A stretch of DNA of 64,000 bases. Origin: an uncultured Clostridia bacterium (GTDB taxonomy: Bacteria; Bacillota; Clostridia; Christensenellales; CAG-314). The stretch is from contig CANRFV010000001.1 of NCBI GenBank assembly GCA_947629985.1, positions 49,329 through 113,328 of the forward strand. The letters are read 5' to 3'. The notes under the pieces were generated by a model, which saw only the letters and a program-made list of their open reading frames with translations, was not told where the DNA came from and searched no databases. A program made the position numbers and the translations under genes. Positions 25,081 through 64,000 of the stretch are shown here, piece by piece (the first letter of the stretch is position 1; every line of letters begins with the position of its first letter).

Positions 25081-25096
25081 AACCTCCCTCAAAGGA

Positions 25097-26201: not shown

Positions 26202-26514
26202 TTTTATCTTTCTTAGAAGTTACCACAACTGTTTCTATCAGCATGCCCAGGTTATTTGCGACTTTTTGTTTTTGTTTAATTTCCGCAAGCTTTTCCGCTC
26301 CTTTTTTGCCATTTACGGCATTCATTGCAGACACGTCAAGCTCACGTTTGACGTAAATATAAACGCCTTTGAGATATTCATCTTTCGTGTTAAGTGGCTT
26401 GCCGTCAAAGACGTATCCGCACACACCTTTGATAAACTCGCCAGCCTGCTTGTCGGTCATGTCGCGCATGACTGTATAGAAATTTCTTTTGAATTTGAAG
26501 TTGTTGCCTTTCAT
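26182..26514 (-). CDS. Small hypothetical protein (DUF6291-like by recollection)
   Basis: The ATG at 26514 follows GGAGAAAAA. The sequence FKFKRNFYTVMRDMTDKQAGEFIKGVCGYVFDGKPL...NGKKGAEK matches a pattern common in phage and ICE leading regions. Confidence 0.4.
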   Translation of the reverse strand: MKGNNFKFKRNFYTVMRDMTDKQAGEFIKGVCGYVFDGKPLNTKDEYLKGVYIYVKRELDVSAMNAVNGKKGAEKLAEIKQKQKVANNLGMLIETVVVTSKKDKNGQTNK

Positions 26515-26533
26515 TTTTTCTCCTTTTTTTGTA

Positions 26534-27082
26534 TTAAACTTCGTTTCCCCAACAGTCCCAACCCTCTGCGTACTGTCTTGCGAACAACTCAATGCGGGGA
26601 ACATCGCCGAACAGTTTTACGATACTTTCACGGACAAAGGGTGGCTTGACGGAATGTCCCATGCGCGGGTGCATGACCACTTGCCGAACGGTTTTATCCG
26701 CGCTTTTAAGGTGTCCTCTCATGCCCAATAAGCACAATTCGGCGTTTGCCTTTGTGTAACTTCCCATGCCCGCAAGCGGACTTCCGTCTTTCTTCGTCTT
26801 GATCCAAGTAAAAGCACAGGTCTTGTAATGGAATCCCCACGCCTGCATGACTTTGATTGCATCGGGCAGACAGGGCATCGTTGCCCACATCAGTAACGCA
26901 CAATTCTTTGCGGCTATCCTTTTAATATCAAGGGCGCATATTTCATCTGTTGACATTGTGCTGTAATGTTTTTCGGGCGCAAAATGCCCGCCGTCTTTGC
27001 CTTTGCCCCACAAGTATGCCCACGGTGGATCTGCATAAATGACGCTGTACTTTTTCTCCGTTTCAAAGATGTTCTCTTTCAT
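26534..27082 (-). CDS. MT-A70 family N6-adenine DNA methyltransferase (orphan)
   Basis: YSVIYADPPWAY (DPPW catalytic motif), 182 aa, typical MT-A70 size and layout. Confidence 0.88.
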   Translation of the reverse strand: MKENIFETEKKYSVIYADPPWAYLWGKGKDGGHFAPEKHYSTMSTDEICALDIKRIAAKNCALLMWATMPCLPDAIKVMQAWGFHYKTCAFTWIKTKKDGSPLAGMGSYTKANAELCLLGMRGHLKSADKTVRQVVMHPRMGHSVKPPFVRESIVKLFGDVPRIELFARQYAEGWDCWGNEV

Positions 27083-27085
27083 CTT

Positions 27086-30419: not shown

Positions 30420-31300
30420 TTACACTTTACCGTTACCGCCACCCGATGATTTGGGCGCGGAATTGCTTGCTTTGGGCGGATTATATGCCGGGGACGATTT
30501 CACGGCTTTCATCGCGGTGTACTCATAGTAACTTTGCGGTTTATCGGGCCGATAGAGTCCGCTCGTCGCAAAGATGCGGAGCATCTGATCTTTGTCGTGT
30601 CTGCACCAAAACGCAAGCTGATTCATAAGACTCATGTCGCTGTTGCTGTGATTATTTCTAATGTCCTCGCCGTTATAAAGCCTTTTGAATGTGTCGCCGT
30701 TTTTGGCACTCATAGCCCTGTCGAGAACCTCTCTGTCGTACATCACTGACAAACCGTCGATACCTGCGCCTACGCCTTTCCACTCGGTGCGCTTCTCGCA
30801 TTTTTGCGAAATAAACTCGCGCATACCCGTCTTATCGAGGTCTTTGAGTTCTTTGCTCGTAACGCTCGTTAAAGGGTTGCCTGTCATAGCGATGAAGTGT
30901 TTGTCTTGGTAGAACTCCAAATCACCGTCTTTCGAGAACGCTCTCACATCGAGGTTCTGCATCTTGCCGAAAACGTGGAGACCCTTACCGCTAATCGAAC
31001 GCTCGCTGTACGTCCCGTTGCCGAAACCCGCCGTTGTCGCACCAACCGAATTGATATTGCCTACCTCGTCAATACAGTCGTCCACGTCGATGCAGACGAT
31101 ATTGTCCTGCCCGTCGAGAGCGTAGGCAAGTGCAACGCCACCATTCTCTTTGGCGTACTGACAAGCCGAGTCAAAGTCCGTCCACGTTGAGGCATCGTTG
31201 CTCTTTGCCGCCTTGCCTGTATGAACATCTATGAGATACTTGTCAAATCGTCCCGTGTCCTTGTTCTCGCTCGTGCGGACGATGACCCAATTCGGTTTGG
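30420..31300 (-). other. Domain: archaeo-eukaryotic primase-polymerase (PrimPol) + PriCT-like helical tail (aa ~3820-4114)
   Basis: The DxD motif is NIVCIDVDDC (about 31074-31094) and the sGxGxH motif is SISGKGLHVFG (about 30966-30992). The tail is NGDTFKRLYNGE...SNSDMSLMNQLAFWCRHDKDQMLRIFATSGLYR. Confidence 0.75.
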
Positions 31301-48361: not shown

Positions 48362-48549
48362 TTTGTTGCCCTCCTCTTCTTCCACCGCCTGTACAACAAA
48401 AAATCCGCAAGGACTTGTTTGCGTACCCGTCAAATGCTGCGCCGCGCAATAGGCGGCGCAGACTTGAACGAGAATTGTTGTCCACGCCCTGTCGGAAGAA
48501 CGACAGGGTAGGACACAAAGGCGAAATGGAAATTTCGCTTAGCCAAATA

Positions 48550-48900: not shown

Positions 48901-51528
48901 TTACATCTCCTTCCAGGGTTTCGGTAAAATTTGGTCTGTTTCCCAATGCCACTCAGTATCGTTGCCGCTTTCAGCTTTGTAGAACAAAACTTGTTTCGGT
49001 TGAGTCAATACACCGGTTATATCAATCAATTGCCATTGGTCTTGTGTGCCAAGGAAATAAATTGTATTTAGTGTCGCATCAAATCCCTCAAAACCTATTC
49101 CAAATGCCCCACTGTTAATTGTCTTTATTGTTTCGGGAAGAACCAACCAATCAAAATTCGTACACAACATAAGAAAATCCGTTGGTATATCGGTAACTTG
49201 TGCAAGAATTATTAATGTGTTAAGATTGGAACAACCACTAAACATACCGGCGGGCAATTCAGTAATATTACATTCTCTGGGAATGATAACGTTAGTTATT
49301 GTCGCATTATTATTAAAGCAACCACTATTTTGACTACCCTGAATTACTTCTACAGATATTCCGTCAATTTTGTCAGGAATTCTCAATTTTTTGTAGTTTC
49401 CGTTATACTTTGTGATTGCGCGAGTTTGTAAGTCAAACGTCCATGTGTTATTGTAATTTTTACCACATATATCGCACACTCCATCGTAATACCCGTACTC
49501 ATCGGCAGTATCGATTTCTTCGTGTTCATCTGTTTTAAGGTAACCGCACTTTGAGCACGCCTTATTATCGCCGAGTTGATCGTGCGCTTCCAACGCCAAC
49601 TCGTTGCCGCATATGCACTTTCCTCTGTGACCGCTTTCGGGTGCTGCAGAGTCGGCAGTATAAACTACTTGACCGCTTTCTTCGCACTTAATCGGTTCTG
49701 TTTTATATGTACAATTACTATTTTGACACTCTTCGTGATGGGAGTCTGCATCAAAAACCAATTTCAGATTATGATCACGGAACCTGGCTTTGTATGTGCA
49801 TCCGTTAGCATCACAAACTTGATACTCTCCGTCAGGACTAGAATAATCTGTACGATAGTGATGTTGTTCTTTTACAAGCGCCTCACAAATGTCGCATCTA
49901 TATGTATGACCGCCAGCACCTGCATTTTCGTATACTCCGGACGAATTAACGTGTGCAACAGTCTCTGTAACGTAATCACAATCAAGGCAATTGGTGTGAT
50001 GTCCCTGATTGCCGTCTGATGCATATTCGGGATCCAAGTTGTGAGATTTAACTTCGCCTTCGTAACCACAACCCTCAGTTTTGCAAACTTCTTTGTGTCC
50101 GCTTTCACCTGCGGATTTGGTTTCGAGATCGTGGCTGTGAGCAACTTCGTATTCGCACTGCTCACATTCGAACTTGGTCTTGTCGGAGTTGATCTTTAAG
50201 CTGTGTGCGGAAACTGCTCCTTCATATCCGCAGCCTTCGGTTTTACAAACTTCTTTGTGTCCGCTTTCACCTGCGGATTTTGTTTCGAGAGCGTGGCTGT
50301 GAGCAACTTCGTATTCGCACTGTTCGCACTCGAACTTGGTCTTGTCGGAGTTTATTTTGAGACTGTGATTTGCAGTGGATGTGTAACCGCAACCTTCAAC
50401 AGTACAGGAAACGGTATGTTGTTCGCTGCCGGTAGATTTATATGAAAGAGTGTGGGTGTGGGCAACTTCGTATTCGCATTGTTCACACTCGAACTTAGTC
50501 TTATCGGAGTTAATTTTAAGACTATGAGCGGAAACAGCACCTTCATATCCACAACCTTCGGTTTTGCAAACTTCTTTGTGTCCGCTTACACCGGCGGACT
50601 CTACCTTGATATCGTGGTTGTGAGCAACTTCGTATTCGCACTGTTCACATTCGAACTTGTCCTTGGCGGAGTTGATTTTGAGACTGTGTTTTGCTGTGGA
50701 TGTGTAACCGCAACCTTCAACAGTACAGGAGATGGTATGTTGTTCGCCGTCGGTAGATTTATATGAAAGGGAGTGAGTGTGGTTTTCTTCATATTCGCAT
50801 TGTTCGCACTCGAATTTAGTCTTGTCGGAGTTGATTTTGAGACTGTGAGCGGCAACTTCGCTTTCATAGCCGCAGCCATCTACGCCGCAGACAGACTTGT
50901 GTCCGCTTTCGCCGGCGGATACAGTTGTAAGTTGGTGATCGGTTACCGTAACGGTGCAGGTTGCCGTTTTGCCGTCGCCCGCCGTTGCAGTGATGACCGT
51001 TTCGCCTGCCGCTACTGCCGTGATTTTGCCGTTGTTGTCAACTGTGGCAACCGCAGGAACGCTTGACGTCCAGGTTACGGTCTTGTCGGTAGCATTTTCG
51101 GGGAGAACTTGCGCTGTGAGCGTATCGTCTTGCTTGGTAACGTGTACGCTGAGCGACTGCTTGTTGAGAGAAACGCTCTCTACTGCCACCGTGGTGGACT
51201 TGAAGGTAACGGTTATGGTCGTGTCTTGTTGTACTTTGAACACAAATTTGCCTTCGCTGTTGAGTTCGCCGACTTTTTCTTCCGAGCCGAGCTTGAATGA
51301 CTCGACTGCGTAGCCATCAACCGGCTTTACGGTAACGGTGAGTTCCGTGCCTTCTTTGTATTGACCGTCCTGCGATTCGGGCGAAAGCGTAACTGAACCT
51401 TGCGCCTTGTCATAATTCGCAATCTTAACTGAATAGGTTTTGTTGCATGCGGCAAACGTCAGGCAAAGAGCCACGAGCGTTACCAAACACAACAGAACAA
51501 TTAATGTGTGCTTTTGGTTTTGTTTCAT
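48901..51528 (-). CDS. Surface lipoprotein: Big_2 domain, tandem four-Cys modules, C-terminal BspA-type LRR
   Basis: The lipobox is LCLTFAAC and the Big_2 unit is VTWTSSVPAVATVDNNGKITAVAAGETVITATA. About 7 units of ...GHKEVCKTEGCGYEG...HSLKINSDKTKFECEQCEYEVAH... are followed by degenerate Cys modules and LRR units (ITELPAGMFSGCSNLNTLII). Confidence 0.85.
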   Translation of the reverse strand: MKQNQKHTLIVLLCLVTLVALCLTFAACNKTYSVKIANYDKAQGSVTLSPESQDGQYKEGTELTVTVKPVDGYAVESFKLGSEEKVGELNSEGKFVFKVQQDTTITVTFKSTTVAVESVSLNKQSLSVHVTKQDDTLTAQVLPENATDKTVTWTSSVPAVATVDNNGKITAVAAGETVITATAGDGKTATCTVTVTDHQLTTVSAGESGHKSVCGVDGCGYESEVAAHSLKINSDKTKFECEQCEYEENHTHSLSYKSTDGEQHTISCTVEGCGYTSTAKHSLKINSAKDKFECEQCEYEVAHNHDIKVESAGVSGHKEVCKTEGCGYEGAVSAHSLKINSDKTKFECEQCEYEVAHTHTLSYKSTGSEQHTVSCTVEGCGYTSTANHSLKINSDKTKFECEQCEYEVAHSHALETKSAGESGHKEVCKTEGCGYEGAVSAHSLKINSDKTKFECEQCEYEVAHSHDLETKSAGESGHKEVCKTEGCGYEGEVKSHNLDPEYASDGNQGHHTNCLDCDYVTETVAHVNSSGVYENAGAGGHTYRCDICEALVKEQHHYRTDYSSPDGEYQVCDANGCTYKARFRDHNLKLVFDADSHHEECQNSNCTYKTEPIKCEESGQVVYTADSAAPESGHRGKCICGNELALEAHDQLGDNKACSKCGYLKTDEHEEIDTADEYGYYDGVCDICGKNYNNTWTFDLQTRAITKYNGNYKKLRIPDKIDGISVEVIQGSQNSGCFNNNATITNVIIPRECNITELPAGMFSGCSNLNTLIILAQVTDIPTDFLMLCTNFDWLVLPETIKTINSGAFGIGFEGFDATLNTIYFLGTQDQWQLIDITGVLTQPKQVLFYKAESGNDTEWHWETDQILPKPWKEM
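50031..50940 (-). repeat. Tandem near-identical coding repeats, ~126-nt period with two alternating subtypes (~252-nt super-repeat)
   Basis: Long DNA stretches recur, e.g. gagcaacttcgtattcgcactgttc...gaacttggtcttgtcggagtt and ccttcggttttacaaacttctttgtgtccgctttcacctgcggatt. The protein units SAGESGHKEVCKTEGCGYEGAVSAHSLKINSDKTKFECEQCEYEVAHSH occur almost verbatim three times. Confidence 0.85.
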
Positions 51529-51716: not shown

Positions 51717-54305
51717 TCAGCCCTCGAAATAGAACTGTGCGTTGTCAATATTGCCCCAAGGACCTGCGCCCGTGAAGTCTGCCTTGACGTGGATACCTAT
51801 CGTTACGCTTTGAACGTTGCTCGCGTCGAACTCCGCGCCCGTAACGGACGTTCTGGTCCACTTTTGCCAACCGTTCATCTGCGCCTGCGTGCCCGTAAAG
51901 GTATGCTCCGTGCCGTCCTTGTATTTGACCGTGATGTATGCATGTATGTCGCAATTTGTTCCGTCCGCGCCTTGGAAATCGAAACTGCACCCCCACTTGC
52001 CACTACCGTAAGTTTGAAGTTTGCTTACGTCTACGGTTTGATAGAGATCGAAATCGACCGCTTTGTCATCCCAGAAGTGGAAACTGTTTATTCCCATGCG
52101 GGCGTTGCCTATGTTGTTGCTTACAAATAGTTGCAAATTTTCCGTCTTGGTGTAACGAAGCCGCCAATTGCCGAGATCCGCCTGAACAAACTTGACCGTG
52201 GCGTCGCCGTAGGATTGGAATCCCTCGAAACTGCCTTCGTCCAAAATGTTGACGTTCATTACCCACACGTAGCAGTAGCAAGTTCCGCCAAAGAGCGTTG
52301 TGCCCGTTACCGTGTACATATCCACGGCGGATATATATTGCGTGAGTTGCGCTTGCTCGATGTTCCAAATGGCGTCTGTTACCTGTTTGGAGCCGTTGTT
52401 GAGAACGATACTGACCGTCTTTGGCAACTCTATCGTGCCTTCGTTGACCGTGTAGTAAACTTCCTGATCGGACAGATAGTCGGCGCGCAGGTCGGTTGTG
52501 TGTCCGCCTTTGACATATTTGAACACTTTGAGCGCCTCTATCGGCGAACCGTCGGACAGGAAAAATGCGTTGTTGTCTACCATAGAACCACCGCCGACAG
52601 GTGCGCCCGTAGGACTTGCCGCAGGTGCGGAACTATCGTACGAGTGAGCGTATGACGTTGCCCATCCGCAACCGTATCTGAGACACAAGTCGCGATTTGT
52701 GGCGCCTTCGGCGCTGTCGCTTGCCGCAACCCAGGTTCCGCCCCAATATGCCACGCCGATACCGTAGTCGCCGAGATCCGCAATGGCTTTGATAACTTCA
52801 CGCACGGCGTTTGCCATACCTTGAACGGTTATCGGCTGAGTTGTCGTTTCCAGCGCGGTGCCGCCGCAACCGTCAAAGTCCTCCTGCGAGAAGGCGTATG
52901 CCGTTTCCAAAACCATTACGTCCTTGCCGAAATCTTTGTGAACGTTGGCAAGCTGTTTGGTAAGCGCGCTGAGCGATCCGTGCGACGTGTAGTACGGATA
53001 CCACGATGTGCCGAATACGTCGTAATCGACGTTGTTGTTTTTGAGCGTTTGCGCCTTGGAATAATAGGTGTTGTCCCCCGCGTTGGTGAAGTGGACGGCG
53101 ATTTTTGCACCGCCTTCCGCAACGGCGCCCGTAACTTTGCGCACCGCTCTTGCACCGGCATTCATCAGAACGGAAATGTTGGTCCAATTGGTTTCGCCCG
53201 CCATTCCGCCCGTGGTTTCGTTGCCTATCTGCACCATTGTGATTTTGACATCGGTGGCTTTGATTTGGGTGAGCGCGTCTTCGGTGAAACTTTCGAGAGC
53301 ATCAGCCTTGGCGGACAATCCCATGTTTGCCCACGCTTTGGGCGCTTTTTGCTTGCCGGGATCTGCCCAGAAATCCGAATAGTGGAAGTCGATGATGACT
53401 CCGAGTCCGACAGCCTGACAACGTTCCGAAAGCGCAACGGCGTTGTCTACATCGCAATTGCCGCCGCCGTAGGGTTGCGTTTTGGCGCTGTCGGCATAGG
53501 GATCGTTCCAAACGCGAATACGAATATCCGTTATGCCGTTGTCTTTCAACACTTGAAGAATATCGGCGTCTTGCCCGTCAAAATCCTTGAATGTCAGACC
53601 GCTTTCGCTGCGAGCCTTTTCGACGGAAAGGAGTTCGGACGCGTCCATTGCCATGATGAAATCCGTGCGGTCTTTGAGACTCGGCACGTCGCCGACATAC
53701 AGTTCGTTTGCGCTCGCTTCGCCCGCAACGGTAACGACGCACGTTGCTCTGTAATTGTTTGTAGACGTCGCCGTTATTACAGCCTGTCCGCCGCCAACAG
53801 CAGTTACAAGTCCGCTTATGCTGACCGATGCGACCGATGTGTTGGAGGACTCCCAGGTGAGAGTTTTGTCCGTGGCGTTTTCTGGCTCGACGTTCGGGAC
53901 AAACAAATATGTATCGCCCACATTGAGGGACAGCGACTGCTTGTCAAGCGAAACTCCCGATACGGGGACGGGCTGCTTGGACGGATCCACTACTGTTACT
54001 ATACATTGCGACGACTTGCCACCGACAGATACGCGGATTGCCGCCTTGCCGTCCTTTATACCCTTGACAACGCCGTTGTCTACCGTTGCGACAGTTGCGT
54101 CCGACGAACGCCAATTGGCGCTTATGCCGCTTGCTTCCTGCGGAAACACGGTGTATGTAAGCGTAGCTTGCTCTCCGACGTTGATCGTGAGCGTTGCTTG
54201 GTCGAGTTCGACGCTTGACACTTCGGCTGCCGTGTCGCAAGCCGCAAGCGGAACCACCATGCACGCTATCATTAAAATTGCCAATAAAATACTTTTTAGT
54301 TTCAT
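51717..54305 (-). CDS. ganB: Secreted lipoprotein arabinogalactan endo-beta-1,4-galactanase (GH53) with two N-terminal Big_2 domains and a C-terminal beta-rich (CBM-like) region
   Basis: The lipobox is VVPLAAC. The GH53 core has IRIRVWNDPY...GGGNCDVDNAVALSERCQAVGLGVIIDFHYSDFWADPGKQKAPKAW, the acid/base MVQIGNETTGG and the nucleophile VMVLETAYAF. Confidence 0.9.
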   Translation of the reverse strand: MKLKSILLAILMIACMVVPLAACDTAAEVSSVELDQATLTINVGEQATLTYTVFPQEASGISANWRSSDATVATVDNGVVKGIKDGKAAIRVSVGGKSSQCIVTVVDPSKQPVPVSGVSLDKQSLSLNVGDTYLFVPNVEPENATDKTLTWESSNTSVASVSISGLVTAVGGGQAVITATSTNNYRATCVVTVAGEASANELYVGDVPSLKDRTDFIMAMDASELLSVEKARSESGLTFKDFDGQDADILQVLKDNGITDIRIRVWNDPYADSAKTQPYGGGNCDVDNAVALSERCQAVGLGVIIDFHYSDFWADPGKQKAPKAWANMGLSAKADALESFTEDALTQIKATDVKITMVQIGNETTGGMAGETNWTNISVLMNAGARAVRKVTGAVAEGGAKIAVHFTNAGDNTYYSKAQTLKNNNVDYDVFGTSWYPYYTSHGSLSALTKQLANVHKDFGKDVMVLETAYAFSQEDFDGCGGTALETTTQPITVQGMANAVREVIKAIADLGDYGIGVAYWGGTWVAASDSAEGATNRDLCLRYGCGWATSYAHSYDSSAPAASPTGAPVGGGSMVDNNAFFLSDGSPIEALKVFKYVKGGHTTDLRADYLSDQEVYYTVNEGTIELPKTVSIVLNNGSKQVTDAIWNIEQAQLTQYISAVDMYTVTGTTLFGGTCYCYVWVMNVNILDEGSFEGFQSYGDATVKFVQADLGNWRLRYTKTENLQLFVSNNIGNARMGINSFHFWDDKAVDFDLYQTVDVSKLQTYGSGKWGCSFDFQGADGTNCDIHAYITVKYKDGTEHTFTGTQAQMNGWQKWTRTSVTGAEFDASNVQSVTIGIHVKADFTGAGPWGNIDNAQFYFEG

Positions 54306-54339: not shown

Positions 54340-55620
54340 TCAGGATATGCGGCGCAGTTTTTTGCGCGGTTCTTCCGCAGACGAACTTTCTTCCGCAACC
54401 GTCACGGAAACGGGCGCGTCGTCCGAATCGGAAAGAAGGTTTACTTCCGTCTCTGCCGAGAAGAAATGCGTTACGCCACTTTCAAATGTAATGTAAATGC
54501 GCGTTCCCGAAACGAGTTTTTCGACCTGCGCCGCCGTAAACGGAGCCGTCGGAACGCGAACGATAAGCTCCTCTCCCGTTTCCGTTTGGACGTGCAGATG
54601 GAAGGAACTTCCCATATTTTCGCGAACCCTTATTACGCACGGGATCGCTTCGGGGTTTTCGTGGTTGGACAGCGATATATGTTCGGGACGAACGCCGAGA
54701 ACGATATCTTGCGGTTGAATATCCTTTTTACGAAAAATCTCGCCGCGTGCACCGTCTATTCGTTTTACAACCCCGCAAAGATTGACAAAGTATCCTTCGG
54801 CATCTCGTTCGAGCCGAGTGCGGAATATGTTCATCTTGGGCGAGCCGATAAACTCCGCGACAAACAGATTTTGCGGCATATCGAACAACTCCGTGGGCGT
54901 TCCCACTTGCTGTATCACGCCGTCCTTCATAATGACTATCCTGTCTGCAAGCGTCATCGCCTCAACCTGATCGTGCGTAACATAGATAAATGTCGTATCG
55001 ATCTTCTTGCGCAGTTCGATCAATTCCGAACGCATTTGAGAACGCAACTTGGCGTCAAGGTTTGAAAGCGGTTCGTCGAGAAGAAATACCGATGCGTTTT
55101 TTACCATTGCGCGACCTATTGCAACGCGCTGCTTTTGTCCGCCCGAAAGCTCACGCGGACGACGTCCGAGATACTCCGTTATGCCGAGAATTTCCGCCGC
55201 ATTGGCAACCCTGTCAGCAATTTCTTGACTTGTCAACTTTCTATTTTTGATTTTTACATCCCGAACATTTCCGTCCTTATCCGTAACGGGGACTTCCACA
55301 GGTATACGCATAAGCGTTAGCGGAAACGCAATGTTTCGGAATATTGTATAATTGGGATACAACGCATAATTTTGGAACACCATCGAGATATCTCTGTCCT
55401 TGGGTTTCAAGTCGTTGACTACCCTGCCACCGATTTTGATAGTGCCTTCGGTAATATCTTCCAAACCCGCTATCATACGAAGCGTTGTGGATTTGCCGCA
55501 CCCCGAAGGACCGACAAATACGACAAATTCTTTGTCTTTAATTTTCAAGTTGAAGTCTTTTACTGCGACTACGTTCTTGCCGTATACTTTTTTGACTCCT
55601 GTCAATTCTACTTCTGCCAT
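54340..55620 (-). CDS. Sugar ABC transporter ATP-binding protein (MalK/MsmX/UgpC family) with an internal insertion and an acidic tail
   Basis: The ATG at 55620 gives [14 protein letters not shown]. Walker A is GPSGCGKST, the signature is [14 protein letters not shown] and Walker B is [13 protein letters not shown] ~30-aa insertion ([25 protein letters not shown]) sits between the Q-loop and the signature. The track start at 55731 overlaps the permease gene. Confidence 0.9.
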
Positions 55621-55628
55621 TTTGCACC

Positions 55629-56663
55629 TTACCCTTTTACCGCGCCGCCTGTTACACCTGCGACGTAATATTTTTGCAACAAGAGGAACAATACTGTAAT
55701 CGGCACTGCCACTACAACTCCGCCTGCACAAAAAGTTGTATAATAATCGTTCTTCATAGAATCAGTGATCAGCCACTGCAATCCTGCCGCGACGTTATAG
55801 CCTGCCGAAGCGTTGTTCGCCATAAAGGTCGCCATGACGAAATCTCCCCACGGTCCCATAAAACCCATCAATATCGTATATATGACTATGGGTTTCGATA
55901 GCGGTAAAATCAATTTGAAAAAGATTTGAAGCCGTGTTGCTCCGTCCACTCTTGCCGCTTCGTCGATCGATTTGGAAATCGTATCGAAGAAACCCTTGGC
56001 GATGTAGTAACCCATTCCCGAACTTGCGACATAGATTATCATCAATCCGTATGGTGCGTTTGCGTCCGTCAAGTTCCAATCGTGCATCCACGTGTACAAA
56101 AGAATGAGCGTCAGGAAACCGGGGAACATTCCGAATACAAGTATCAAGTTCATCAAAAACTTGCGTCCATTGAAACGGAATCTCGACAGTACATAAGCGA
56201 CCGACAATTGAAATATCGTTTGTACCACAGCGGTTACAATTCCCATCAAAAAGGTGTTGCCGTACCATTTAAGGAAAAGTCCGTTTTGGAAAGTAAACAA
56301 CCGAGCATAATTGTCAAAGCCCCATTGCTTGGGTATGAGATACCCTGCAAGTCCCGTGCTTTCGCAACGGAATGATTCGAGAACAATACCGATAAACGGC
56401 AAAATCCAAACGAAACAAAGCACTGCCAAAACAATATGTATTACAATATTTACAACTCTGTTTTTCGTTTTTTGCGAAACACGTCCTTTGTTTGCAACTG
56501 CCGTCGTACTTGTGGAGAGAGTGTCCGTCTGTGCTACGAAAATGTCCGTATATTCCGGCGTGAAGTTTTCGGCAACTTCCATTTCAATATTGGACTCTAC
56601 GGTCTTGGTTTCACTACCGTAAAATTCAAACACTTCGCCGTTTTCAATCCGTTCATTCATCAT
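55629..56663 (-). CDS. Sugar ABC transporter permease (MalG/GanQ-like) with a ~60-aa N-terminal cytoplasmic extension
   Basis: Six TM helices and the EAA-type loop SIDEAARVDGATRLQIFFKLILP. Confidence 0.88.
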   Translation of the reverse strand: MMNERIENGEVFEFYGSETKTVESNIEMEVAENFTPEYTDIFVAQTDTLSTSTTAVANKGRVSQKTKNRVVNIVIHIVLAVLCFVWILPFIGIVLESFRCESTGLAGYLIPKQWGFDNYARLFTFQNGLFLKWYGNTFLMGIVTAVVQTIFQLSVAYVLSRFRFNGRKFLMNLILVFGMFPGFLTLILLYTWMHDWNLTDANAPYGLMIIYVASSGMGYYIAKGFFDTISKSIDEAARVDGATRLQIFFKLILPLSKPIVIYTILMGFMGPWGDFVMATFMANNASAGYNVAAGLQWLITDSMKNDYYTTFCAGGVVVAVPITVLFLLLQKYYVAGVTGGAVKG

Positions 56664-58438
56664 GAAAAGTCCTCCTCTCTTCGCGTGGAAGGCATAATCG
56701 TGAAAATGATGAGCGAAAGCACCGATACCACAATAAATATCATCGTTCCGATAACCGACGCCATCTTGTAGTTGGCTTCGCTACCCGTAGTAATGCCGAA
56801 CAGCCAAGTGATAAGGATAGTTGTATCTCCCGCAATGTATCCGCCGACATCTCCCCAAGCAAAATGCGGAGGACCGCCCTGCGTCAAGAGATAAATGACG
56901 TTGAAGTTGTTGATATTGGATACAAAGTTCGTCAGAAGATACGGTCCCGTTACGAACAACATATACGGCATCGTAATTTTGCAAAACTGCTGAAATGCGT
57001 TTGCGCCATCAATTTGCGCCGATTCGTACAGATCTTGCGGAATATTCATCAAAATGCCCGTCGTTATCAACATCAGATACGGTATGCCGACCCAAATGTT
57101 GATAACAAGCACCATTACTTTGGCAAGCGTACCGTCGCCCCAAAACGATATAGGTTTGTCTATCCAACCCCAATTCATAAGCGTGGCATTTACTATGCCG
57201 TTGTCCGCAAACAAATTGCTGACGTACAACAGCGATATGAACTGCGGTATGGCTATCGTCATAACGAGAACTGTTCGCCAAAACTTTTTGATTTTGATAC
57301 CCTTTTTGTTTATCAGCATTGCTACAAACATGCCAAGGAAGTAATTGCTGAACGTTGCAAACACTGCCCAAATCAATGTCCAGGCAAGTATCTCGCCAAA
57401 TGCCAAAGACAACTGCGAGCCAAAAGTAAACATCTGATTGAAGTTTTCCAATCCCACCCATGTGAACAGGTTGTTGTAGCCGTCAGCTTCGTAGTCGTAA
57501 CTTGTAAAGCCTACAAGTATCATAAAGATGATAGGCAATATCGTGAACATCACTATGCCGAATACCGGCAGCGACAACAGCGTCTTGTGGAATTCGTCGT
57601 CGGCAAGAGACTGCACGTCTTCTTTACTCGTCTTTATCTTTTTGCCGCTTGCGGTGATTTCATCCAGAATGCGACACTGCTTTACATTGAGCCGCCAAGT
57701 GTATATGAACGCTATTATAAAGAATATCGTGATAAGTCCATACAGCAATATCTTAAATGAGTTGTCCACGTGAACGGTCGTATAGACGTCGAGAATTGGG
57801 TCATATTCTTCAATTGTAGCGACTGTGCCTAACGAGCCGAACTTGCCAAGCCAGGCTCCGCCCCAAAATACCATATACAATATGAATGCCGCTTCAAACA
57901 AGAAGAATAACAATCCGCGCAACCACTGCCCGTGAGTAAGATTGCCGAACCCCATCACTAAATAGCTGACGCGTGTTTTCCAACTGCCTTTTTTGAATGT
58001 CGTACCGATATCTTTGATGTTTTCCCAAACGGAAATTCCGAAGTCTTTGATTTTCAATCCAAGTTTTACGAATTTTTTTGCGAACCATTTGGGTATTCCG
58101 ACAAAAAATTGTTTGAATTTATATAGTATCCTTTGAAACCAGTTCAATCTTTGATATTCCAATGTGGTCAAAGGTTTATTGCCGGAAATCTTCTTTTCGT
58201 AGCGTCTTTCGAATTCTGCAAAAATTTCATCGCCGTCGTCATTGGTAATTACTTCATAGCATTTACCGCCGTCGTTTTTTAAGACGCGCGCAAGCGCAAT
58301 CTCTTCCTCTTCGGAAGAGTTTGCGCTTTGTACCGGAGTAAATGCCGCATATTTATCTCCACGGTATGTAAATTTCATAAGCAGACGCATTGAAATCGAT
58401 TCGCCGCCGATTGTCAAATCCGTCAAAAATTCTTTCAT
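56660..58438 (-). CDS. Sugar ABC transporter permease (MalF/GanP-like) with a ~110-aa N-terminal soluble extension
   Basis: The EAA loop is LYESAQIDGANAFQQFCKITMP. The N-terminus FTYRGDKYAAFTPV...EEEIALARVLKNDGGKCYEVITNDDGDEIFAEFERRYE looks DUF1292-like (recollection). Confidence 0.88.
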   Translation of the reverse strand: MKEFLTDLTIGGESISMRLLMKFTYRGDKYAAFTPVQSANSSEEEEIALARVLKNDGGKCYEVITNDDGDEIFAEFERRYEKKISGNKPLTTLEYQRLNWFQRILYKFKQFFVGIPKWFAKKFVKLGLKIKDFGISVWENIKDIGTTFKKGSWKTRVSYLVMGFGNLTHGQWLRGLLFFLFEAAFILYMVFWGGAWLGKFGSLGTVATIEEYDPILDVYTTVHVDNSFKILLYGLITIFFIIAFIYTWRLNVKQCRILDEITASGKKIKTSKEDVQSLADDEFHKTLLSLPVFGIVMFTILPIIFMILVGFTSYDYEADGYNNLFTWVGLENFNQMFTFGSQLSLAFGEILAWTLIWAVFATFSNYFLGMFVAMLINKKGIKIKKFWRTVLVMTIAIPQFISLLYVSNLFADNGIVNATLMNWGWIDKPISFWGDGTLAKVMVLVINIWVGIPYLMLITTGILMNIPQDLYESAQIDGANAFQQFCKITMPYMLFVTGPYLLTNFVSNINNFNVIYLLTQGGPPHFAWGDVGGYIAGDTTILITWLFGITTGSEANYKMASVIGTMIFIVVSVLSLIIFTIMPSTRREEDFS

Positions 58439-58452: not shown

Positions 58453-59685
58453 CTAATCTTTGAGATCGTTCAACGAATTGTTATAAGTTGTAAGAAGCGA
58501 TTGCAATGTGGCGTCGTCTTCTTCACTTGTCGCCGCATCGCCCACCATCGTGTCAAGTTTTGCCCACCAATTTGTCGGATATTGTCCTTGCAACGTCGTC
58601 TTTGCCTGTTTAAGAAGAACATCCAATGCGGGAGACGTAGCGTCTGCCGCCGCTTTAATGTTGGACGGTCCCCATCCGACTGTTTCAAAACGTTCACGCT
58701 GACATTCCTCGCTCGTAAGGAATATGGCGAGCTTTTGCAGATACGCCGCTCTGTACGCATCACTTTGGGGCTTAACGCCCATCAATTTGCTGCCGAGATA
58801 AGAAACAAGCTGATAACTCTTGCCGTCAACGGTGAACGAAGGCAACGGAGCCACGCCGAGATCGCTTCCCAACGCTTGTTGTGCCGCTTTGTAACCCCAA
58901 ATACCGCTTACGACGACCGCAGAAGGTATCGCCGCGTTGAAATCGCTCACTTCGGCGGAAGGATTGTAAACGCTTGATTTCAAAAGCTTTTGCAAACCTT
59001 TCAAAGCAATCACACCGTTTGCCGAAGAGAAATTGTCCTCATAGCTCTTGAAATTGCCCTTCTCGTCCGTAGTCCATTCCGACTGGCAACCTGTCGCATA
59101 AAAGAACGATGCCGAATACCAACTTCCACCGTCTTTTGTGAGGTTCATCGAGAAGTTTTTGCCAGCAGCTTTGCAATCTTCGATAATATCTTCGAGACTT
59201 CCGATATGCTCTTCCTTTACAACGCGTTTGTCATAGTACATAAAGTAACCGTTGTCTTTCGTAAACGGAAAAGCGCAAATGGTATCTCCGATTTTTGCCG
59301 CCGCAACGGACGCGTCATCACAAGTAGATGTAATTGCCGTTACCGAAGCGGTATTGAGTTTGCACAACAAATTGGAGTGGACGACGCGTGCAAGTTGATC
59401 CTGCGCAAAACAGAAAATATCCGCACACGACGCCGGAGTGGAAATCGCATTGCCTGCGGCTTTGGATTCGCTGACAATTTCGATTTTTGCCTTGAACTTA
59501 ATGCCGTCCTCGTTTGTTTCGTTAAATCTTTCAATTTGCTTTTGTGTCAGAGCATCCGTTCCTTCGCCGACCCAAACGACAATTTCATAGTCGTAGTCGC
59601 CGTCCTTGTCGCATGCGGACAAAACGCATACGATTGGAATAAGCATCAAAATACTCAACAAAATGATTAGAGCGCGTTTTTTCAT
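58453..59685 (-). CDS. Extracellular solute-binding lipoprotein (family 1; GanS/CycB/MalE-like)
   Basis: The lipobox is VCVLSAC. Its size (410 aa) and its position directly upstream of the two permease genes fit this class. Confidence 0.85.
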   Translation of the reverse strand: MKKRALIILLSILMLIPIVCVLSACDKDGDYDYEIVVWVGEGTDALTQKQIERFNETNEDGIKFKAKIEIVSESKAAGNAISTPASCADIFCFAQDQLARVVHSNLLCKLNTASVTAITSTCDDASVAAAKIGDTICAFPFTKDNGYFMYYDKRVVKEEHIGSLEDIIEDCKAAGKNFSMNLTKDGGSWYSASFFYATGCQSEWTTDEKGNFKSYEDNFSSANGVIALKGLQKLLKSSVYNPSAEVSDFNAAIPSAVVVSGIWGYKAAQQALGSDLGVAPLPSFTVDGKSYQLVSYLGSKLMGVKPQSDAYRAAYLQKLAIFLTSEECQRERFETVGWGPSNIKAAADATSPALDVLLKQAKTTLQGQYPTNWWAKLDTMVGDAATSEEDDATLQSLLTTYNNSLNDLKD

Positions 59686-59792: not shown

Positions 59793-60899
59793 TTAGGTTT
59801 TATACTCATCGAATGCGGGCAATTTGTGCCCGTTATAGTCGAACAGACAGTGATTTGCGTACTCGTTCCTGTTTGAACGCTTATCGCTGTGAACATACTC
59901 TTTTCCCGCGTCGGAAGCCCAACAATTTTCACCGCAAGGCGTCCACAACGGCTCCCAATAACATACAAGTTCTATCTTGTGTTTTTGAGCGAGTGCAAGA
60001 AAATCCTTAACAAACCTGCGCTGTCCGTCAACCGTCAACGGATATTGCGCATTGAATGTGGCATCTTCGTGAGTGCCACCGTTTACCATAAGCGCCTCGC
60101 TGTCTTCGCTCTTTATATAATCTTCCGTCGTAAAGGCGCGACCGAGTTCCACTACCATAATGCGCTTACCAAATTTTTTGCAATTCTCAACATTGGCAAA
60201 AAATTGTTCGAACGGACCGTGCCAATATGAATAATAGGACATGCCGATTATGTCGTAATCGACGTTGGCAGCCTGCATTTGTGAATAAAACTCATTGTAA
60301 ACCTTTTGGTCGTAGCTTCTTTCCAAATGCAAAATTATACCTGCTTTCGGATACACTTCTCTGCACGCTTTTATTCCGGCGTTAAGCAACTTAATAAGGC
60401 TATCGTAATTGGTGCGCGAGCCGTCGGGTTGTTCGTCGAGATGCCCGAAGGGCCACAATATTCCGTTTGTAATTTCGTTGCCGACTTGAATAAATTCTAT
60501 GTCAATACCGTGTGCTTTGGCTGTTTTCAATGTTTCGGCGGTAAAAGCGTAAACATGATCGACAAGGCCCTGCAGATCGAAGTTTTGCCAGGCTTTCGGG
60601 ACGCACTGTTTTGCGGGATCCGCCCAAAAATCACTGTAATGAAAATCCGCCATTATCTTGTAACCTTTCTCTTCGGAAAGCATTGCAAGTTTGATAAAAT
60701 TATCCACGTCGCAAGTGCCGGCAAGATACGGCTCTCCGTTTCGTCCGTAAGGGTCGTTCCAGATGCGTATGCGCATAACATCCACACCATTGTTGCTGAA
60801 AGCATCCAATGGCTCTATTTCTTTGTTTCCGTCAAAATATTTGGCGTGATGTATATTTTCCATTTCAAGATATGTAGAAGCATCTATACCGAGTCTCAT
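59793..60899 (-). CDS. GH53-family galactanase homologue without a signal peptide (predicted cytoplasmic)
   Basis: The ATG at 60899 gives MRLGIDASTYLEME. The core has MRIRIWNDPY...AGTCDVDNFIKLAMLSEEKGYKIMADFHYSDFWADPAKQCVPKAW, FIQVGNEITNG and IMVVELGRAF. Confidence 0.85.
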   Translation of the reverse strand: MRLGIDASTYLEMENIHHAKYFDGNKEIEPLDAFSNNGVDVMRIRIWNDPYGRNGEPYLAGTCDVDNFIKLAMLSEEKGYKIMADFHYSDFWADPAKQCVPKAWQNFDLQGLVDHVYAFTAETLKTAKAHGIDIEFIQVGNEITNGILWPFGHLDEQPDGSRTNYDSLIKLLNAGIKACREVYPKAGIILHLERSYDQKVYNEFYSQMQAANVDYDIIGMSYYSYWHGPFEQFFANVENCKKFGKRIMVVELGRAFTTEDYIKSEDSEALMVNGGTHEDATFNAQYPLTVDGQRRFVKDFLALAQKHKIELVCYWEPLWTPCGENCWASDAGKEYVHSDKRSNRNEYANHCLFDYNGHKLPAFDEYKT

Positions 60900-60900: not shown

Positions 60901-61161
60901 TTATTGTTCACCTGCCTTATGTTCACTGAATTTGGGCGGTTCGTTATCTTCGCCGAAATCCACAACGCGCTGACGAAGCCTTCCGTATTTTTGTTTGAAT
61001 TGCTCGTTAAGCCCGATTACCTCGTCTTCGGTTCCACGAAATGCGCAACGCAAACAGTAATATTGCTTTGTTTTTTCATCGTAAAACATATCCATATCGA
61101 TGTCGCGCATAAAACAACGCGGACAACGGTAATTCAATTTACCTTTTGTAGCTTGAGCCAT
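60901..61161 (-). CDS. Small zinc-ribbon protein
   Basis: The 86-aa ORF has YRCPRCFMRD...YYCLRCAFRG (CxxC...CxxC). It overlaps the upstream gene by 28 nt and ends 2 nt before the GH53 start. Confidence 0.55.
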   Translation of the reverse strand: MAQATKGKLNYRCPRCFMRDIDMDMFYDEKTKQYYCLRCAFRGTEDEVIGLNEQFKQKYGRLRQRVVDFGEDNEPPKFSEHKAGEQ

Positions 61162-63002
61162 GTTTCCATTCCTCCCTTTGAAATATTCTTTCTTGCCCGC
61201 AAATGGAATACGGGAGAGAACGCGATCCCCTCTTCAACTTCGAATTCATCGGGATAATCCGTTGATGACCTGTCCGCCTCGTTTCCTTCCAAAGTTATTT
61301 GCGTGTGGATACTCGGCAAGCAAGCATTAGCATATATTTTTCCTACGGATTTACGTCCCTTGTACTCGTAATCGATCAATCCACCGCCGCAACAATTAGT
61401 GTAAACCCACAAACTCACATCTGTCATATCGGGTTGATATTCCGTCGTGCCGAAACCGCCCGTCAAATACTCTTCGAGCGTGACGACTTCGCCGTGCAAA
61501 TCGTTAACTATCTCTCGCCTCGTCATCATATTGCCCGTTTCTTCATCGAAGAAGAATATCGAACGCACGGTTATATCCAAACCGTCCAATGTAACCGTTA
61601 CGGGATCGGCGACAATTTTTACGCCTTTATCTGTTTTTTCATATCTTGCCATTGTACGGCAAAGACACAAATCGGCGGTTTGTCCGTGATAATGGATCTT
61701 GCACGACTTTACCGTGCCTGCGCCGGCATAGTGTGTGAAATAGCCCGCGCGATAGTTGGCTTGTATGATATAGGGATAGGACGCGTCGTACACATTATCT
61801 GTACCAATACCAACCTTTTGCGGAATTTTGGCAACATAGGGACGCAAATCTATCATTGCGCCGCCTTGGTTGAAATCCAAACAGCAGCGAAGCGACGGAG
61901 ACGCATACCAAAAATATTCCTTGTTGCTTCCATAGAGAATGTCCTTCCACATGGCGCACTCCGCACGTTTGTAATTCGGGTGGGTCTCACGGTAATAATC
62001 GGCAAGTTCGCTCATGGTCATATCAATGCATTTGCCTTCCTGTTTAAGCTTGCCGTAATATCTCATTACATCTTTATAAGACTTTGCAAGACGTTCATAG
62101 GGAGACTCCCACCGCCCTGCCTTGTTGAGCCAACCCGGTCCAACGAACATCATGTTGTAGCAGAACCCGTCATTGTACTTGGCGAGATGACGATACTGAT
62201 CTATAAGGTTGTAAAGGTAGGGATATTCCGTTCCTTTCTCATCTTCGTAATAAATCATACCGCGCAGCACATTTTGCGGATGCGTTCCGAAGTTTGATCC
62301 GTTGCCGTCAAAGCAAGCAAGTAAGTCGCGGGAGAGATGCGGAATTGCGACAATACCACTATCGTCATCTCTATCGCTTGCGGGGCAATGAGAATTTACT
62401 TTTGACGGGATCCAAGGATTCCACGGACCGCCGTCCATAAATGTGTACCAACTATTGTTGCAAGTGTGATAGGCTTTCGGTCCTTCTTCCCAACAGGTGG
62501 CAATGGCACATTTGACGGAAGGATATTTTTCCTTTATGTAGTTGATTGTAAACGCATCAAGGAAGTAACTGCCGGTAGATTCCGGATAGAAGCCGAATTT
62601 TTCATAGAAAAGCCCGAAACAGTCATCTACTATCTCTTTCTTCCTTTTTTCATCAAACATCCAAATACAAAAATCCTCTGTTTGGTATTTTTCTTTGAAC
62701 TGTTTGCAAGGCAAGCCCAAAAGCGACAAGCCTATTTCATCGCCGTATTTATCATGGTGTTCTTTTGCAAGCTCCACTATCTTGTCAGAAAACAACGAAG
62801 CATACGTTATTTGAATGGTGGTTTTCAGACCGCATTCATGAGCCGATTCCTGTTGAAATAGAAATATATCCAGCGACTCGTCCTGCACATCTCTTTTGCC
62901 ACCGAGTGCCTTTTCCGCATATTCAGGCGAAAGCTCAGGGCGATGAATAATATTCAATGCCAATTTGCTTTCGTTGTTTGTTAATTCTGTTTGACTTTGC
63001 AC
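61134..63002 (-). CDS. 622-aa cytoplasmic protein of unknown family, candidate carbohydrate-active enzyme
   Basis: A long uninterrupted ORF with no signal peptide and no motif I can assign. It is the first gene of the operon, sitting where gan loci usually carry the GH42 beta-galactosidase. Confidence 0.75.
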   Translation of the reverse strand: MQSQTELTNNESKLALNIIHRPELSPEYAEKALGGKRDVQDESLDIFLFQQESAHECGLKTTIQITYASLFSDKIVELAKEHHDKYGDEIGLSLLGLPCKQFKEKYQTEDFCIWMFDEKRKKEIVDDCFGLFYEKFGFYPESTGSYFLDAFTINYIKEKYPSVKCAIATCWEEGPKAYHTCNNSWYTFMDGGPWNPWIPSKVNSHCPASDRDDDSGIVAIPHLSRDLLACFDGNGSNFGTHPQNVLRGMIYYEDEKGTEYPYLYNLIDQYRHLAKYNDGFCYNMMFVGPGWLNKAGRWESPYERLAKSYKDVMRYYGKLKQEGKCIDMTMSELADYYRETHPNYKRAECAMWKDILYGSNKEYFWYASPSLRCCLDFNQGGAMIDLRPYVAKIPQKVGIGTDNVYDASYPYIIQANYRAGYFTHYAGAGTVKSCKIHYHGQTADLCLCRTMARYEKTDKGVKIVADPVTVTLDGLDITVRSIFFFDEETGNMMTRREIVNDLHGEVVTLEEYLTGGFGTTEYQPDMTDVSLWVYTNCCGGGLIDYEYKGRKSVGKIYANACLPSIHTQITLEGNEADRSSTDYPDEFEVEEGIAFSPVFHLRARKNISKGGMETWLKLQKVN

Positions 63003-63266
63003 ATCAATTCCTCCAACTTGATTATAAATTCGGGACTATAAGTTTAATATCGCCAAAAGGCGACAATATCCCTTTCCCAATTTAGTGATTAAATTATACA
63101 CGACAATAAATCTCATTTCTACCCCAAACTCTGCAAGAAATATATGATTTCTAAAAAAAATTTGCGTTTTAATCAAGGCATTATTATTACTCTTTATAAA
63201 TAAAAGAAATTAAGATAAACTGCAAAAAAATCGGAACATTCTTGTTGAGAACATCCCGAATATACA

Positions 63267-64000
63267 TCAACCTAATAACCCGAATTTGTATCGAATGAAA
63301 TATGAATTTATTTTATCCTTATTTAATAACGGTTGTGGAAACGAAGGAGTATTTACGGCATCGGGAAAGAATTGCGGTTCGAGAGCAAAACCTTCGCGCG
63401 GAATGAGATCGTGCGTGCCGTTAAAACCATGCAAAAAATTACCCGAATAGAATTGCAGACCGGGCATATCCGTAAATACTTCCATTTTTATGCCGCTTGA
63501 TTCGTTGAAAGCCAATGCCGCACATTCGTTTGCGCTATGCCGCAACACAAAATTGTGGTCGTAACCGCTTGTTGGCTGCAACTGAGCGGAATTTATGTCT
63601 TTGCCTATTTTTTTAGGATGACGAAAATCCAACGGCGTACCTTCTACCGAAGTAATCTCTCCCGTGGGAATTTGCCCCGCTCCCATCGGCGTGTAACAGT
63701 CGGTGTTTATTTGCAGATATGTTTCGTCAACTGTTTGTTCTGTGCCAAGGCGGAAATACGGATGGATTGTAGGTGCCCAAAACGTATCCTTGTCGCAGAC
63801 GGCGGAAAAACGCACGGTAAGCGACGCTCCGTCCAAAACAAATTCCACGCGCATAGTCAAATTACCGGGGAATCCCTGATCGCCGTCGGGACTGTTCACA
63901 GACATTACAAGCGACGTTGTATCGACCGTCTGCACCGAAAAAAGACGTTGATCAAAGCCGATTTTACCGCCGTGCAAGGTGTTTTCGCCGTCATTTTGCG
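63267..64000 (-). CDS. galM: Aldose 1-epimerase (galactose mutarotase), N-terminus beyond the window
   Basis: The frame stays open to position 64000 (...NDGENTLHGGKIGFDQRLF...). Other matches are DGDQGFPGNL, TPMGAGQIPTGE, GYDHNFVL and FALEPQFFPDAVN, the mutarotase signatures. Confidence 0.88.
   Translation of the reverse strand, partial: QNDGENTLHGGKIGFDQRLFSVQTVDTTSLVMSVNSPDGDQGFPGNLTMRVEFVLDGASLTVRFSAVCDKDTFWAPTIHPYFRLGTEQTVDETYLQINTDCYTPMGAGQIPTGEITSVEGTPLDFRHPKKIGKDINSAQLQPTSGYDHNFVLRHSANECAALAFNESSGIKMEVFTDMPGLQFYSGNFLHGFNGTHDLIPREGFALEPQFFPDAVNTPSFPQPLLNKDKINSYFIRYKFGLLG

Follow-up and report, generated by a model that had tools for sequence, protein, structure and literature searches.

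A protein family without database assignment and its small zinc-ribbon neighbour in galactan utilisation loci of gut Clostridia

The galactan locus and the 622-residue protein

We analysed a 64,000-nucleotide stretch of an uncultured Clostridia bacterium (GenBank assembly GCA_947629985.1, contig CANRFV010000001.1, positions 49,329 to 113,328 of the forward strand), hereafter the window, in which the gene for a 622-amino-acid cytoplasmic protein (61134–63002, hereafter the target) stands within a beta-1,4-galactan utilisation locus. Plain coordinates refer to the window throughout, and all features given by them lie on its minus strand. The genes of the locus follow each other in the order aldose 1-epimerase, target, zinc-ribbon protein, glycoside hydrolase family 53 (GH53) protein, binding lipoprotein, permeases, ATPase and secreted GH53. 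The aldose 1-epimerase, or mutarotase, gene (63267–64000; PF01263, E 2.4e-49) is cut by the end of the window, its frame being open to the edge. Downstream of the target, an open reading frame (ORF) with the ribosome-binding site GGGAGG encodes an 86-residue zinc-ribbon protein with four Cys (60901–61161; RCPxC...YYCxxCxFxG), presumed to be a small subunit. It is followed by a homologue of GH53 endo-beta-1,4-galactanases (59793–60899; PF07745, E 5.9e-88), 368 residues long from the ATG at 60899, without signal peptide and therefore cytoplasmic. An oligosaccharide importer of the ATP-binding cassette (ABC) type is encoded next, with a solute-binding lipoprotein (58453–59685; PF13416), two MalFG-type permeases (55629–58438, namely 56660–58438 and 55629–56663; PF00528) and a MalK/MsmX-type ATPase (54340–55620; PF00005, OB_MalK, TOBE_2). 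The last gene encodes a secreted GH53 endo-galactanase with Big_2 domains (51717–54305; PF07745, E 1.1e-92) and a lipoprotein signal at its N-terminus, MKLKSILLAILMIACMVVPLAAC. No GH42, GH2 or GH35 beta-galactosidase was detected with Pfam in the locus. The permease at 56660–58438 is an unusual fusion of 592 residues, in which an N-terminal DUF1292 and a long extension precede the MalF-like membrane domain.

An earlier note, made from the sequence of the window alone, had described the target as a soluble, Cys- and aromatic-rich protein that matches no glycoside hydrolase, phosphorylase or isomerase family and is linked by overlaps to the zinc-ribbon protein and the GH53 homologue. Both peptides quoted there are found in the target (residues 170–207 and 286–303). 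The target starts with GTG (63002–63000), with GGAGG at 63014–63010, 7 bases 5' of the start codon, and it unquestionably is a real gene, with thousands of homologues that reach 93% identity over the full length. Its maximum Kyte-Doolittle hydropathy is 1.1 over 19-residue windows; since no such window is of membrane-helix grade and no signal peptide is present, the protein is soluble and cytoplasmic, as the note had it. The composition was also described correctly (20 Cys, or 3.2%; F+W+Y 13.3%), but the richness in Cys is mostly not a trait of the family: C170 is the sole family-conserved Cys of the target (37 of 38 sequences), and the remaining ones are clade-specific. A metal cluster built from the target cysteines was rejected on these grounds. 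As for the overlaps, the one between target and zinc-ribbon gene is real (61134–61161, 28 nt), and the zinc-ribbon gene has its own GGGAGG, but the junction with the GH53 gene is most likely a 1-nt spacer. The zinc-ribbon ORF stops with TAA at 60903–60901, and the GH53 gene would overlap it only if the upstream TTG at 60965 were used; we favour the ATG at 60899, whose Met is immediately followed by the Pfam match to GH53.

The spacer between aldose 1-epimerase and target measures 264 nt. It contains a terminator-like hairpin (63231–63259) and a promoter-like site (63093–63121), both within 63093–63259 and found by consensus scan only. They would suit, in a suggestive manner, a transcription unit that opens with the target. 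Neither Rfam nor tRNA scans found a match anywhere in the window, leader included.

Searches with the target gave no match in Pfam-A (E≤1), nothing meaningful in NCBIfam (a single 12.9-bit match) and nothing below E=2 among all PDB chains (phmmer). In contrast, 2,534 homologues were obtained at E≤1e-3 from a database of 5.8 billion proteins; none of them carries a Pfam domain, and all that are named are called 'hypothetical protein'. The 50%-identity representative library yielded 506 matches, about 30 of them full-length clusters with 22–60% identity, and we compiled a family alignment (A1) of 38 sequences that reaches down to 22% identity. Neither the target nor any of the 38 members matched the Pfam models of GH2, GH35 and GH42, Glyco_hydro_38N or Polysacc_deac_1; Glyco_hydro_57 gave no match at E≤1 in any member, and the phosphorylase models of GH65, GH94, GH112 and GH130 in Pfam and NCBIfam gave none to the family. 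In the literature, we found no paper on the target family, its zinc-ribbon partner, or the DUF3863 proteins and structure 3LM3 that are described below. That is, gene and family are, with high confidence, real and have no assignment in Pfam, NCBIfam or PDB sequences, and the lack of a recognisable family claimed in the earlier note is borne out. Profile searches of Pfam and NCBIfam, the kind of check proposed there, returned no confident family. Novelty is judged here against Pfam, NCBIfam and PDB; families defined in CAZy only (for example GH147, GH165 and GH173) lie outside this comparison.

The gene pair across genomes

A scan of species-representative genomes gave at least 575 confirmed family matches. 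The scan profile was built from a 12-sequence alignment, as the 38-sequence alignment had no sufficiently conserved stretch. Among the matches listed, the carriers are almost all metagenome-assembled genomes from gut and rumen, belonging to Clostridia, Lachnospiraceae, Oscillospiraceae, Christensenellaceae and Erysipelotrichaceae; some of them are assigned to Acetatifactor and Christensenella. Neighbourhoods were counted for the best 80 of the at least 575 matches (58–82% identity to the target). In 76 of these 80 loci a zinc-ribbon homologue lies directly downstream, and the remaining four contigs do not extend beyond that point. GH53 genes are present in 72 loci, mostly directly after the zinc-ribbon ORF. 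ABC permeases (65 loci), a solute-binding protein (62) and a MalK-type ATPase (39) are also frequent, as are regulators of the LacI (22) and AraC (15) types, and galactokinase (GalK, 12–14), GH77 (9) and GalE (8) genes occur as well. An aldose 1-epimerase was found in three loci, so its position upstream of the target is rarely conserved.

Of 20 loci examined in detail, 16 have an overlap of precisely 28 nt between the two genes, members at 36–44% identity among them, and the others have 31, 31, 25 and 4 nt; this strict conservation of its length is notable. Read in its two frames, the 28-base overlap encodes the conserved C-terminus of the large protein (…TWLxLxKxN) and the conserved N-terminus of the zinc-ribbon protein (MAQxxKGKL). 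Seven of eight distant representatives (33–44% identity) have a complete overlapping small ORF of 63–77 residues, and the eighth has the first 114 nt of such an ORF, where its contig stops. All aligned small ORFs carry RCPxC...YYCxxCxFxG. P0183 and P0187, which at 22% identity are the most divergent members, carry the ribbon as a C-terminal fusion to the large protein. Taken together, adjacency, conserved translational coupling and this Rosetta-stone fusion argue strongly for a physical complex. From gene arrangement we thus infer complex formation, hold the partnership with fairly high confidence, and regard the zinc-ribbon protein as very probably a subunit of the enzyme. We know of no precedent for an obligate zinc-ribbon partner of a glycosidase. 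From sequence inspection only, we set aside the idea that the small protein binds iron in the manner of rubredoxin, its knuckles being RCPxCF/YCxxCxF and not CxxCG.

More distant family members (33–44% identity) always stood, where examined, amid carbohydrate-active enzymes and sugar transporters. One such locus contains GH123, GH36, GH43, GH28 and GH2 genes, another carbohydrate esterase family 2 (CE2) and GH63-like genes, a further one CE2, one CE4, and one a GH42-like giant protein. In one locus (L171:8619-14084), a distant member and its ribbon lie between two genes of the ADP-ribosylglycohydrolase family (455 and 713 residues), which are unusual neighbours for a carbohydrate enzyme; the locus also encodes sugar ABC transporters and a two-component system of the AraC type. 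Because distant members sit in carbohydrate loci other than those for galactan, the family as a whole is not galactan-specific. It presumably serves the cytoplasmic processing of oligosaccharides in general, one of its clades being devoted to galactan.

A GH13 gene (544 residues, similar to oligo-1,6-glucosidase and trehalose-6-phosphate hydrolase) is present in 29 of the 80 loci (L008-L022, L030, L034, L053 and others), its position being about 1.6 kb 5' of the target homologue. In the clade at about 70% identity, it stands directly upstream, so that an enzyme of an alpha-glucosidase family lies within an otherwise apparent beta-galactan operon.

Predicted fold, conserved residues and remote relatives

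An AlphaFold2 model of the target, built on the 38-sequence alignment, reached a mean predicted local distance difference test score (pLDDT) of 90.9 and a predicted template modelling score (pTM) of 0.92. It comprises an N-terminal 7-stranded beta/alpha barrel, the putative catalytic domain (residues ~12–345, 61968–62969; delimited with Foldseek and hhalign as well), and an all-beta C-terminal sandwich that resembles galactose mutarotases (residues ~348–620, 61143–61961). The best Foldseek match in the PDB was 3LM3, a JCSG structure labelled 'putative glycoside hydrolase/deacetylase' (E 8.6e-17, template modelling (TM) score 0.62 on the target, 15% identity), followed by 1K1X, a 4-alpha-glucanotransferase of GH57 from Thermococcus litoralis (E 1e-13, with a whole-chain TM of 0.27). 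GH38 enzymes (7VQO, 3LVT) and the CE4-like 3QBU and 3RXZ (E 3e-6 to 1e-5) matched more weakly. For the sandwich domain, the galactose mutarotases 4BZE, 3MWX and 1L7J were found at E 1e-9; a match to LacZ (domain 5) was on the beta-sandwich only, not on the barrel. The layout of barrel plus sandwich occurs among the glycosidases of these matches and not among the CE4-like deacetylases, 3QBU and 3RXZ being single-domain proteins of 286–290 residues. The model thus assigns to the target, with high confidence, a barrel of the GH57/GH38/CE4 'glycoside hydrolase/deacetylase' superfamily joined to a mutarotase-like sandwich and, because both barrel and sandwich are matched, the predicted architecture of GH57 and GH38 glycosidases.

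Fifteen positions are invariant in the 38 sequences of A1, namely E89, E173, G174, G191, W194, P199, R225, R247, Y262, N277, R372, D385, R387, G398 and P410, while D149, C170, E172, H222, D226 and others are conserved to at least 90%. Active sites of barrel enzymes lie at the C-terminal ends of the strands, and this is where the model places D149 (strand 4), C170-E172-E173 (strand 5) and H222-R225-D226 (strand 6). D149 (62556–62558), in an LDA motif after strand 4, is also invariant in alignment A4. The second group belongs to C170-W-E172-E173-G174 (consensus CFEEG; 62481–62495), which follows the model strand 165–169, and the third to H222-L-S-R225-D226 (PHLxRD; 62325–62339), of which the hhalign alignments show D226 opposite an Asp in both Bacteroidota relatives. 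Candidate catalytic residues are therefore D149, E172/E173 and D226, at the predicted tops of strands 4–6, together with E89 of the GDEIG motif (62736–62738), which is kept in both Bacteroidota relatives described below. The stretch R372...QGGAxxD385-L-R387-P-Y (61842–61889) marks the start of the beta-sandwich (strands 372–376 and 382–387). In the model, R372, D385 and R387 fall into the first hairpin of this domain, and their loop is probably contributed to the active site. Neither a TFDD nor an H-x-x-x-H motif nor a His-His-Asp metal triad was found in A1, in which H222 is the only His conserved to at least 90%.

Searching the PDB with the A1 profile (hmmsearch) also pointed to 3LM3, at E 0.0057, via the loop G191–A208 of the target (GGPWNPWIPSKVNSHCPA, 62379–62432), whose family form GGPWNPWIPSKxNxxCPA aligned to DGSPSYPFYPSTEHFCKPA of 3LM3; hhalign, too, gave this loop as a common signature. 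The 3LM3 fragment that holds it belongs to Pfam DUF3863 (PF12979). With the 87-residue fragment, a metagenome scan returned only copies at 91–100% identity and a database search only short fragments. The full-length gene, taken from metagenome contigs, encodes DUF3863 (704 bits) followed by DUF3864. Compared by hhalign with full-length DUF3863, the family profile scored a probability of 97.1% (E 7e-11). A still better value (98.8%, E 8e-17, 290 columns) was obtained for a 567-residue Bacteroidota paralogue, the closest outside relative detectable. Its gene (L089:3807-5510) lies directly upstream of a DUF3863 gene in a Sus-type locus, and the protein has no Pfam or NCBIfam match. In contrast to these profile comparisons, the target itself does not match DUF3863 at E≤1 (threshold 27 bits), and only two of the 38 members do so, weakly (best E 0.0036). 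The relation of target and DUF3863 is hence remote but real, at the level of a superfamily and not of family membership.

According to the hhalign alignments, the family, the paralogue and DUF3863 have in common the PS...PA loop, an Asp aligned with D226 and the E89 motif in the forms GDEIG, SEIG or GDEV. The DUF3863 protein of 3LM3 (BDI_3119, Parabacteroides distasonis) resembles the target in its G-x-P-x-x-P-[WFY]-x-PS...PA loop and its GDE(I/V) motif of strand 3. Unlike the target, it is a secreted Bacteroidota protein of ~450 residues that lacks the CFEEG motif and ends in a domain of ~80 residues (DUF3864) instead of the ~270-residue mutarotase-like sandwich. DUF3863 genes stand in Sus-type loci with GH3, GH38, GH63-like and GH2-like genes, whereas the target stands in GH53 loci; no zinc-ribbon ORF or fusion was noticed beside a DUF3863 gene, though no search was aimed at one. 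The 567-residue paralogue is similar to the target in length and has FG-x-YP-x-SVGS-[WY]-x-[IL]DA, the PS...PA loop and E89, but it differs in having a signal peptide, CKDQ in place of CFEEG, and a Sus-type locus. In this Parabacteroides-type locus, the paralogue gene overlaps the DUF3863 gene (L089:5497-6930), and an ORF for a group-II-intron-like reverse transcriptase is inserted just downstream (L089:7785-9437; the intron was called by sequence reading only). An MGH1-like/GH63-like glycosidase gene adjoins both a distant member of the target family in a Firmicute-type locus and a DUF3863 gene in a Bacteroidota-type locus (L087:12099-14756 and L153:7115-9037, respectively), an association that may recur across the superfamily. 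In short, the novelty lies in the family, not in its fold or in the broad kind of enzyme, both of which are known already.

Function, surroundings and comparison with known systems

From these observations we infer glycosidase chemistry and a galacto-oligosaccharide substrate. In the pathway we propose for this clade, pectic beta-1,4-galactan would be cut extracellularly by the secreted GH53, the resulting oligosaccharides would enter through the ABC importer, and the cytoplasmic GH53 would shorten them. The target, most probably working as a complex with the zinc-ribbon protein, would then hydrolyse galactobiose and galactotriose to galactose, which would enter the Leloir pathway. That the substrate derives from galactan we consider probable, with moderate confidence. 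The fuller reading, a cytoplasmic glycosidase with a ribbon subunit that completes the breakdown of beta-1,4-galacto-oligosaccharides, including galactose-releasing hydrolysis, is put forward tentatively, as a proposal that could well be right or wrong. More speculative, and somewhat doubtful, is the idea that target and ribbon found a new glycoside hydrolase family, with the first beta-galactosidase or galactobiosidase on a 7-stranded GH57/GH38-type barrel and the first obligate zinc-ribbon subunit, which replaces GH42 in hundreds of gut Firmicute species and whose related clades and Bacteroidota DUF3863 relatives have other specificities.

The arguments of the earlier note for such a role survive in part. 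Its inference from genomic context is strengthened by the conserved tie to ribbon and GH53 across dozens of species, but it holds for this clade only. Foldseek on the AlphaFold model, another check that it had named, returned a fold typical of glycoside hydrolases. The candidate new CAZy family likewise stands as far as the missing assignment and the glycosidase-like fold are concerned, although it has remote relatives in DUF3863, the Bacteroidota paralogue and the GH57/GH38/CE4 superfamily. The statement that the target occupies a 'beta-galactosidase slot' agrees with the lack of GH42, GH2 and GH35 in the local locus, but is weakened because a GH42-like gene coexists with the pair in 12 of the 80 related loci.

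The GH42-like genes are the first of several points that count against our proposal. Given their presence, the target need not be 'the' beta-galactosidase. All 12 loci belong to a group at ~59–60% identity, mostly labelled Lachnospiraceae; GH2-like genes occur in 2 of the 80 loci, neither GH42 nor GH2 lies in the flanks of 66, and both are missing from loci L001-L043, the clade of the window. Second, conservation of the CFEEG acids does not extend to the Bacteroidota relatives (hhalign). Third, the catalytic scheme of GH57 uses a Glu of strand 4 and an Asp of strand 7, from which the conserved acids of the target, placed by the model after strands 4, 5 and 6, appear to differ. Fourth, the four invariant arginines (R225, R247, R372, R387) may suit an anionic substrate or phosphate. 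Fifth, when a natural fusion was modelled with AlphaFold2, the enzyme part was well folded, but the ribbon had a pLDDT of 53–74, leaving its docking without structural support. Finally, the superfamily to which the predicted fold belongs also includes deacetylases and other non-glycosidases, and the literature search gave no activity for the family, DUF3863 or the Bacteroidota paralogue.

Several other functions were considered. The target might be a glycosidase that acts on a side group or an uncommon bond of galactan-derived oligosaccharides, such as terminal L-arabinose on type I arabinogalactan fragments, with galactose being released by GH53, GH42 or an enzyme encoded elsewhere. In favour of this, a GH42-like gene sits beside the pair in 12 loci, where the two are thus not redundant, and the distant members in loci for other glycans indicate that specificity varies within the family. 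Nevertheless, we think it unlikely, as the window's clade has no other cytoplasmic exo-glycosidase in the locus and arabinose-utilisation genes are missing among the frequent gene clusters of the 80 neighbourhoods.

Glycosyl transfer is also unlikely, and distinctly so. It would make the target either a phosphorylase that yields galactose-1-phosphate or a transglycosylase like the GH57 and GH77 4-alpha-glucanotransferases of maltodextrin metabolism. The invariant arginines could bind phosphate, a GH57 glucanotransferase ranks second among the structural matches, and in anaerobic Firmicutes ABC import is commonly followed by phosphorolysis in the cytoplasm. Arginines, however, are ordinary sugar-binding residues as well, galactokinase genes accompany the pair in 12–14 of the 80 loci, the GH112, GH94, GH130 and GH65 models do not match, and we know of no phosphorylase on a 7-stranded barrel of the GH57/GH38/CE4 type.

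A carbohydrate esterase or deacetylase with CE4-like chemistry, which would remove a substituent from the imported oligosaccharides, is improbable. Its merits are the fold superfamily, which includes CE4/NodB (3QBU and 3RXZ in Foldseek), and the CE2 or CE4 genes that adjoin some distant members, where a neighbouring esterase gene suggests a complementary rather than the same function. The lack of Polysacc_deac_1 matches in all 38 members and of a conserved His-His-Asp triad, only H222 passing 90%, speaks against it. So does the barrel-plus-sandwich layout of the glycosidase matches; to our knowledge CE4 enzymes generally have no beta-sandwich domain of this kind, and pectic beta-1,4-galactan is not known to us to be acetylated. 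Last, a role in sugar sensing or regulation, in which the target would be derived from an enzyme but non-catalytic and the ribbon would bind nucleic acid or protein, is very improbable: the window's locus has no visible regulator gene, and the C-terminal helix of the zinc-ribbon protein is basic, zinc ribbons often being nucleic-acid binders, but acids at the predicted barrel top are invariant across 22–93% identity, separate LacI (22 of 80) or AraC (15 of 80) regulators are common, and the target contains no helix-turn-helix or other DNA-binding domain in Pfam or NCBIfam.

Beyond the galactan locus, the window contains a block of conjugation genes (13180–28795). It encodes a VirB4/TraG-like ATPase (15150–17789), a type IV coupling protein (21062–23290), a MobL relaxase (23291–24610) and an ArdC-like antirestriction/zincin protein (27086–28795), and its large ORFs at 13180–15153, 17786–19024 and 19404–21047 have no Pfam match. 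This suggests an integrative conjugative element adjoining the galactan locus. Just downstream of the secreted GH53 gene follow proteins of 875 (48901–51528) and 1,470 residues (44021–48433), both with Big_2 and BspA-type LRR_5 repeats, and a giant ORF of 4,114 residues (30420–42764); the two repeat proteins are presumably cell-surface adhesins. A gene for a HipA-like toxin kinase (HipA_C and Couple_hipA; 6872–8131) lies in a low-GC stretch (GC 0.35 at 8–12 kb).

Among enzymes of known function, those of GH57 (1K1W/1K1X) are like the target in that a (beta/alpha)7 barrel precedes a beta-sandwich. They differ from it in sequence, as already seen from Pfam, in overall structure, given the low whole-chain TM, and in substrate, which is alpha-glucan for GH57 and, judged by context, beta-galactan for the target. 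IHRP after strand 1 and GDEIG loosely resemble HQP and GQLEIV of GH57. GH38 alpha-mannosidases share with the target a 7-stranded barrel and mutarotase-like beta domains, CE4/NodB deacetylases the 7-stranded barrel. Unlike both, the target family has no conserved His/Asp metal-site motifs and no Pfam matches, and hhalign of the family with a GH38 protein (L153:2259-5480) detected no relation (probability 0.1%).

Among dietary fibres pectic galactan is a common one, and the usual account of how gut Firmicutes exploit it invokes GH53 together with a GH42 beta-galactosidase; the widespread alternative galactan gene set described here carries an unnamed enzyme family instead. If the proposed activity is true, it would establish a new CAZy family, annotate thousands of 'hypothetical proteins' of gut and rumen metagenomes and provide the first functional foothold for DUF3863, a structural-genomics orphan since 2010. 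The enzyme would, in addition, be a rare instance of a glycosidase relying on a small subunit of the zinc-ribbon type. The closest known counterparts of the locus are the GH42 galactan operons of Firmicutes and bifidobacteria, for example ganSPQAB of B. subtilis with its GanA/GalG-type GH42 beta-galactosidase. They likewise combine an extracellular GH53, a MalEFG-like importer and a cytoplasmic enzyme, and the target occupies the usual position of GH42. GH42, however, is a (beta/alpha)8 enzyme of clan GH-A and has no relation in sequence or fold to the 7-stranded barrel predicted for the target, and the target locus further differs from these operons by its constant zinc-ribbon partner and its extra cytoplasmic GH53.

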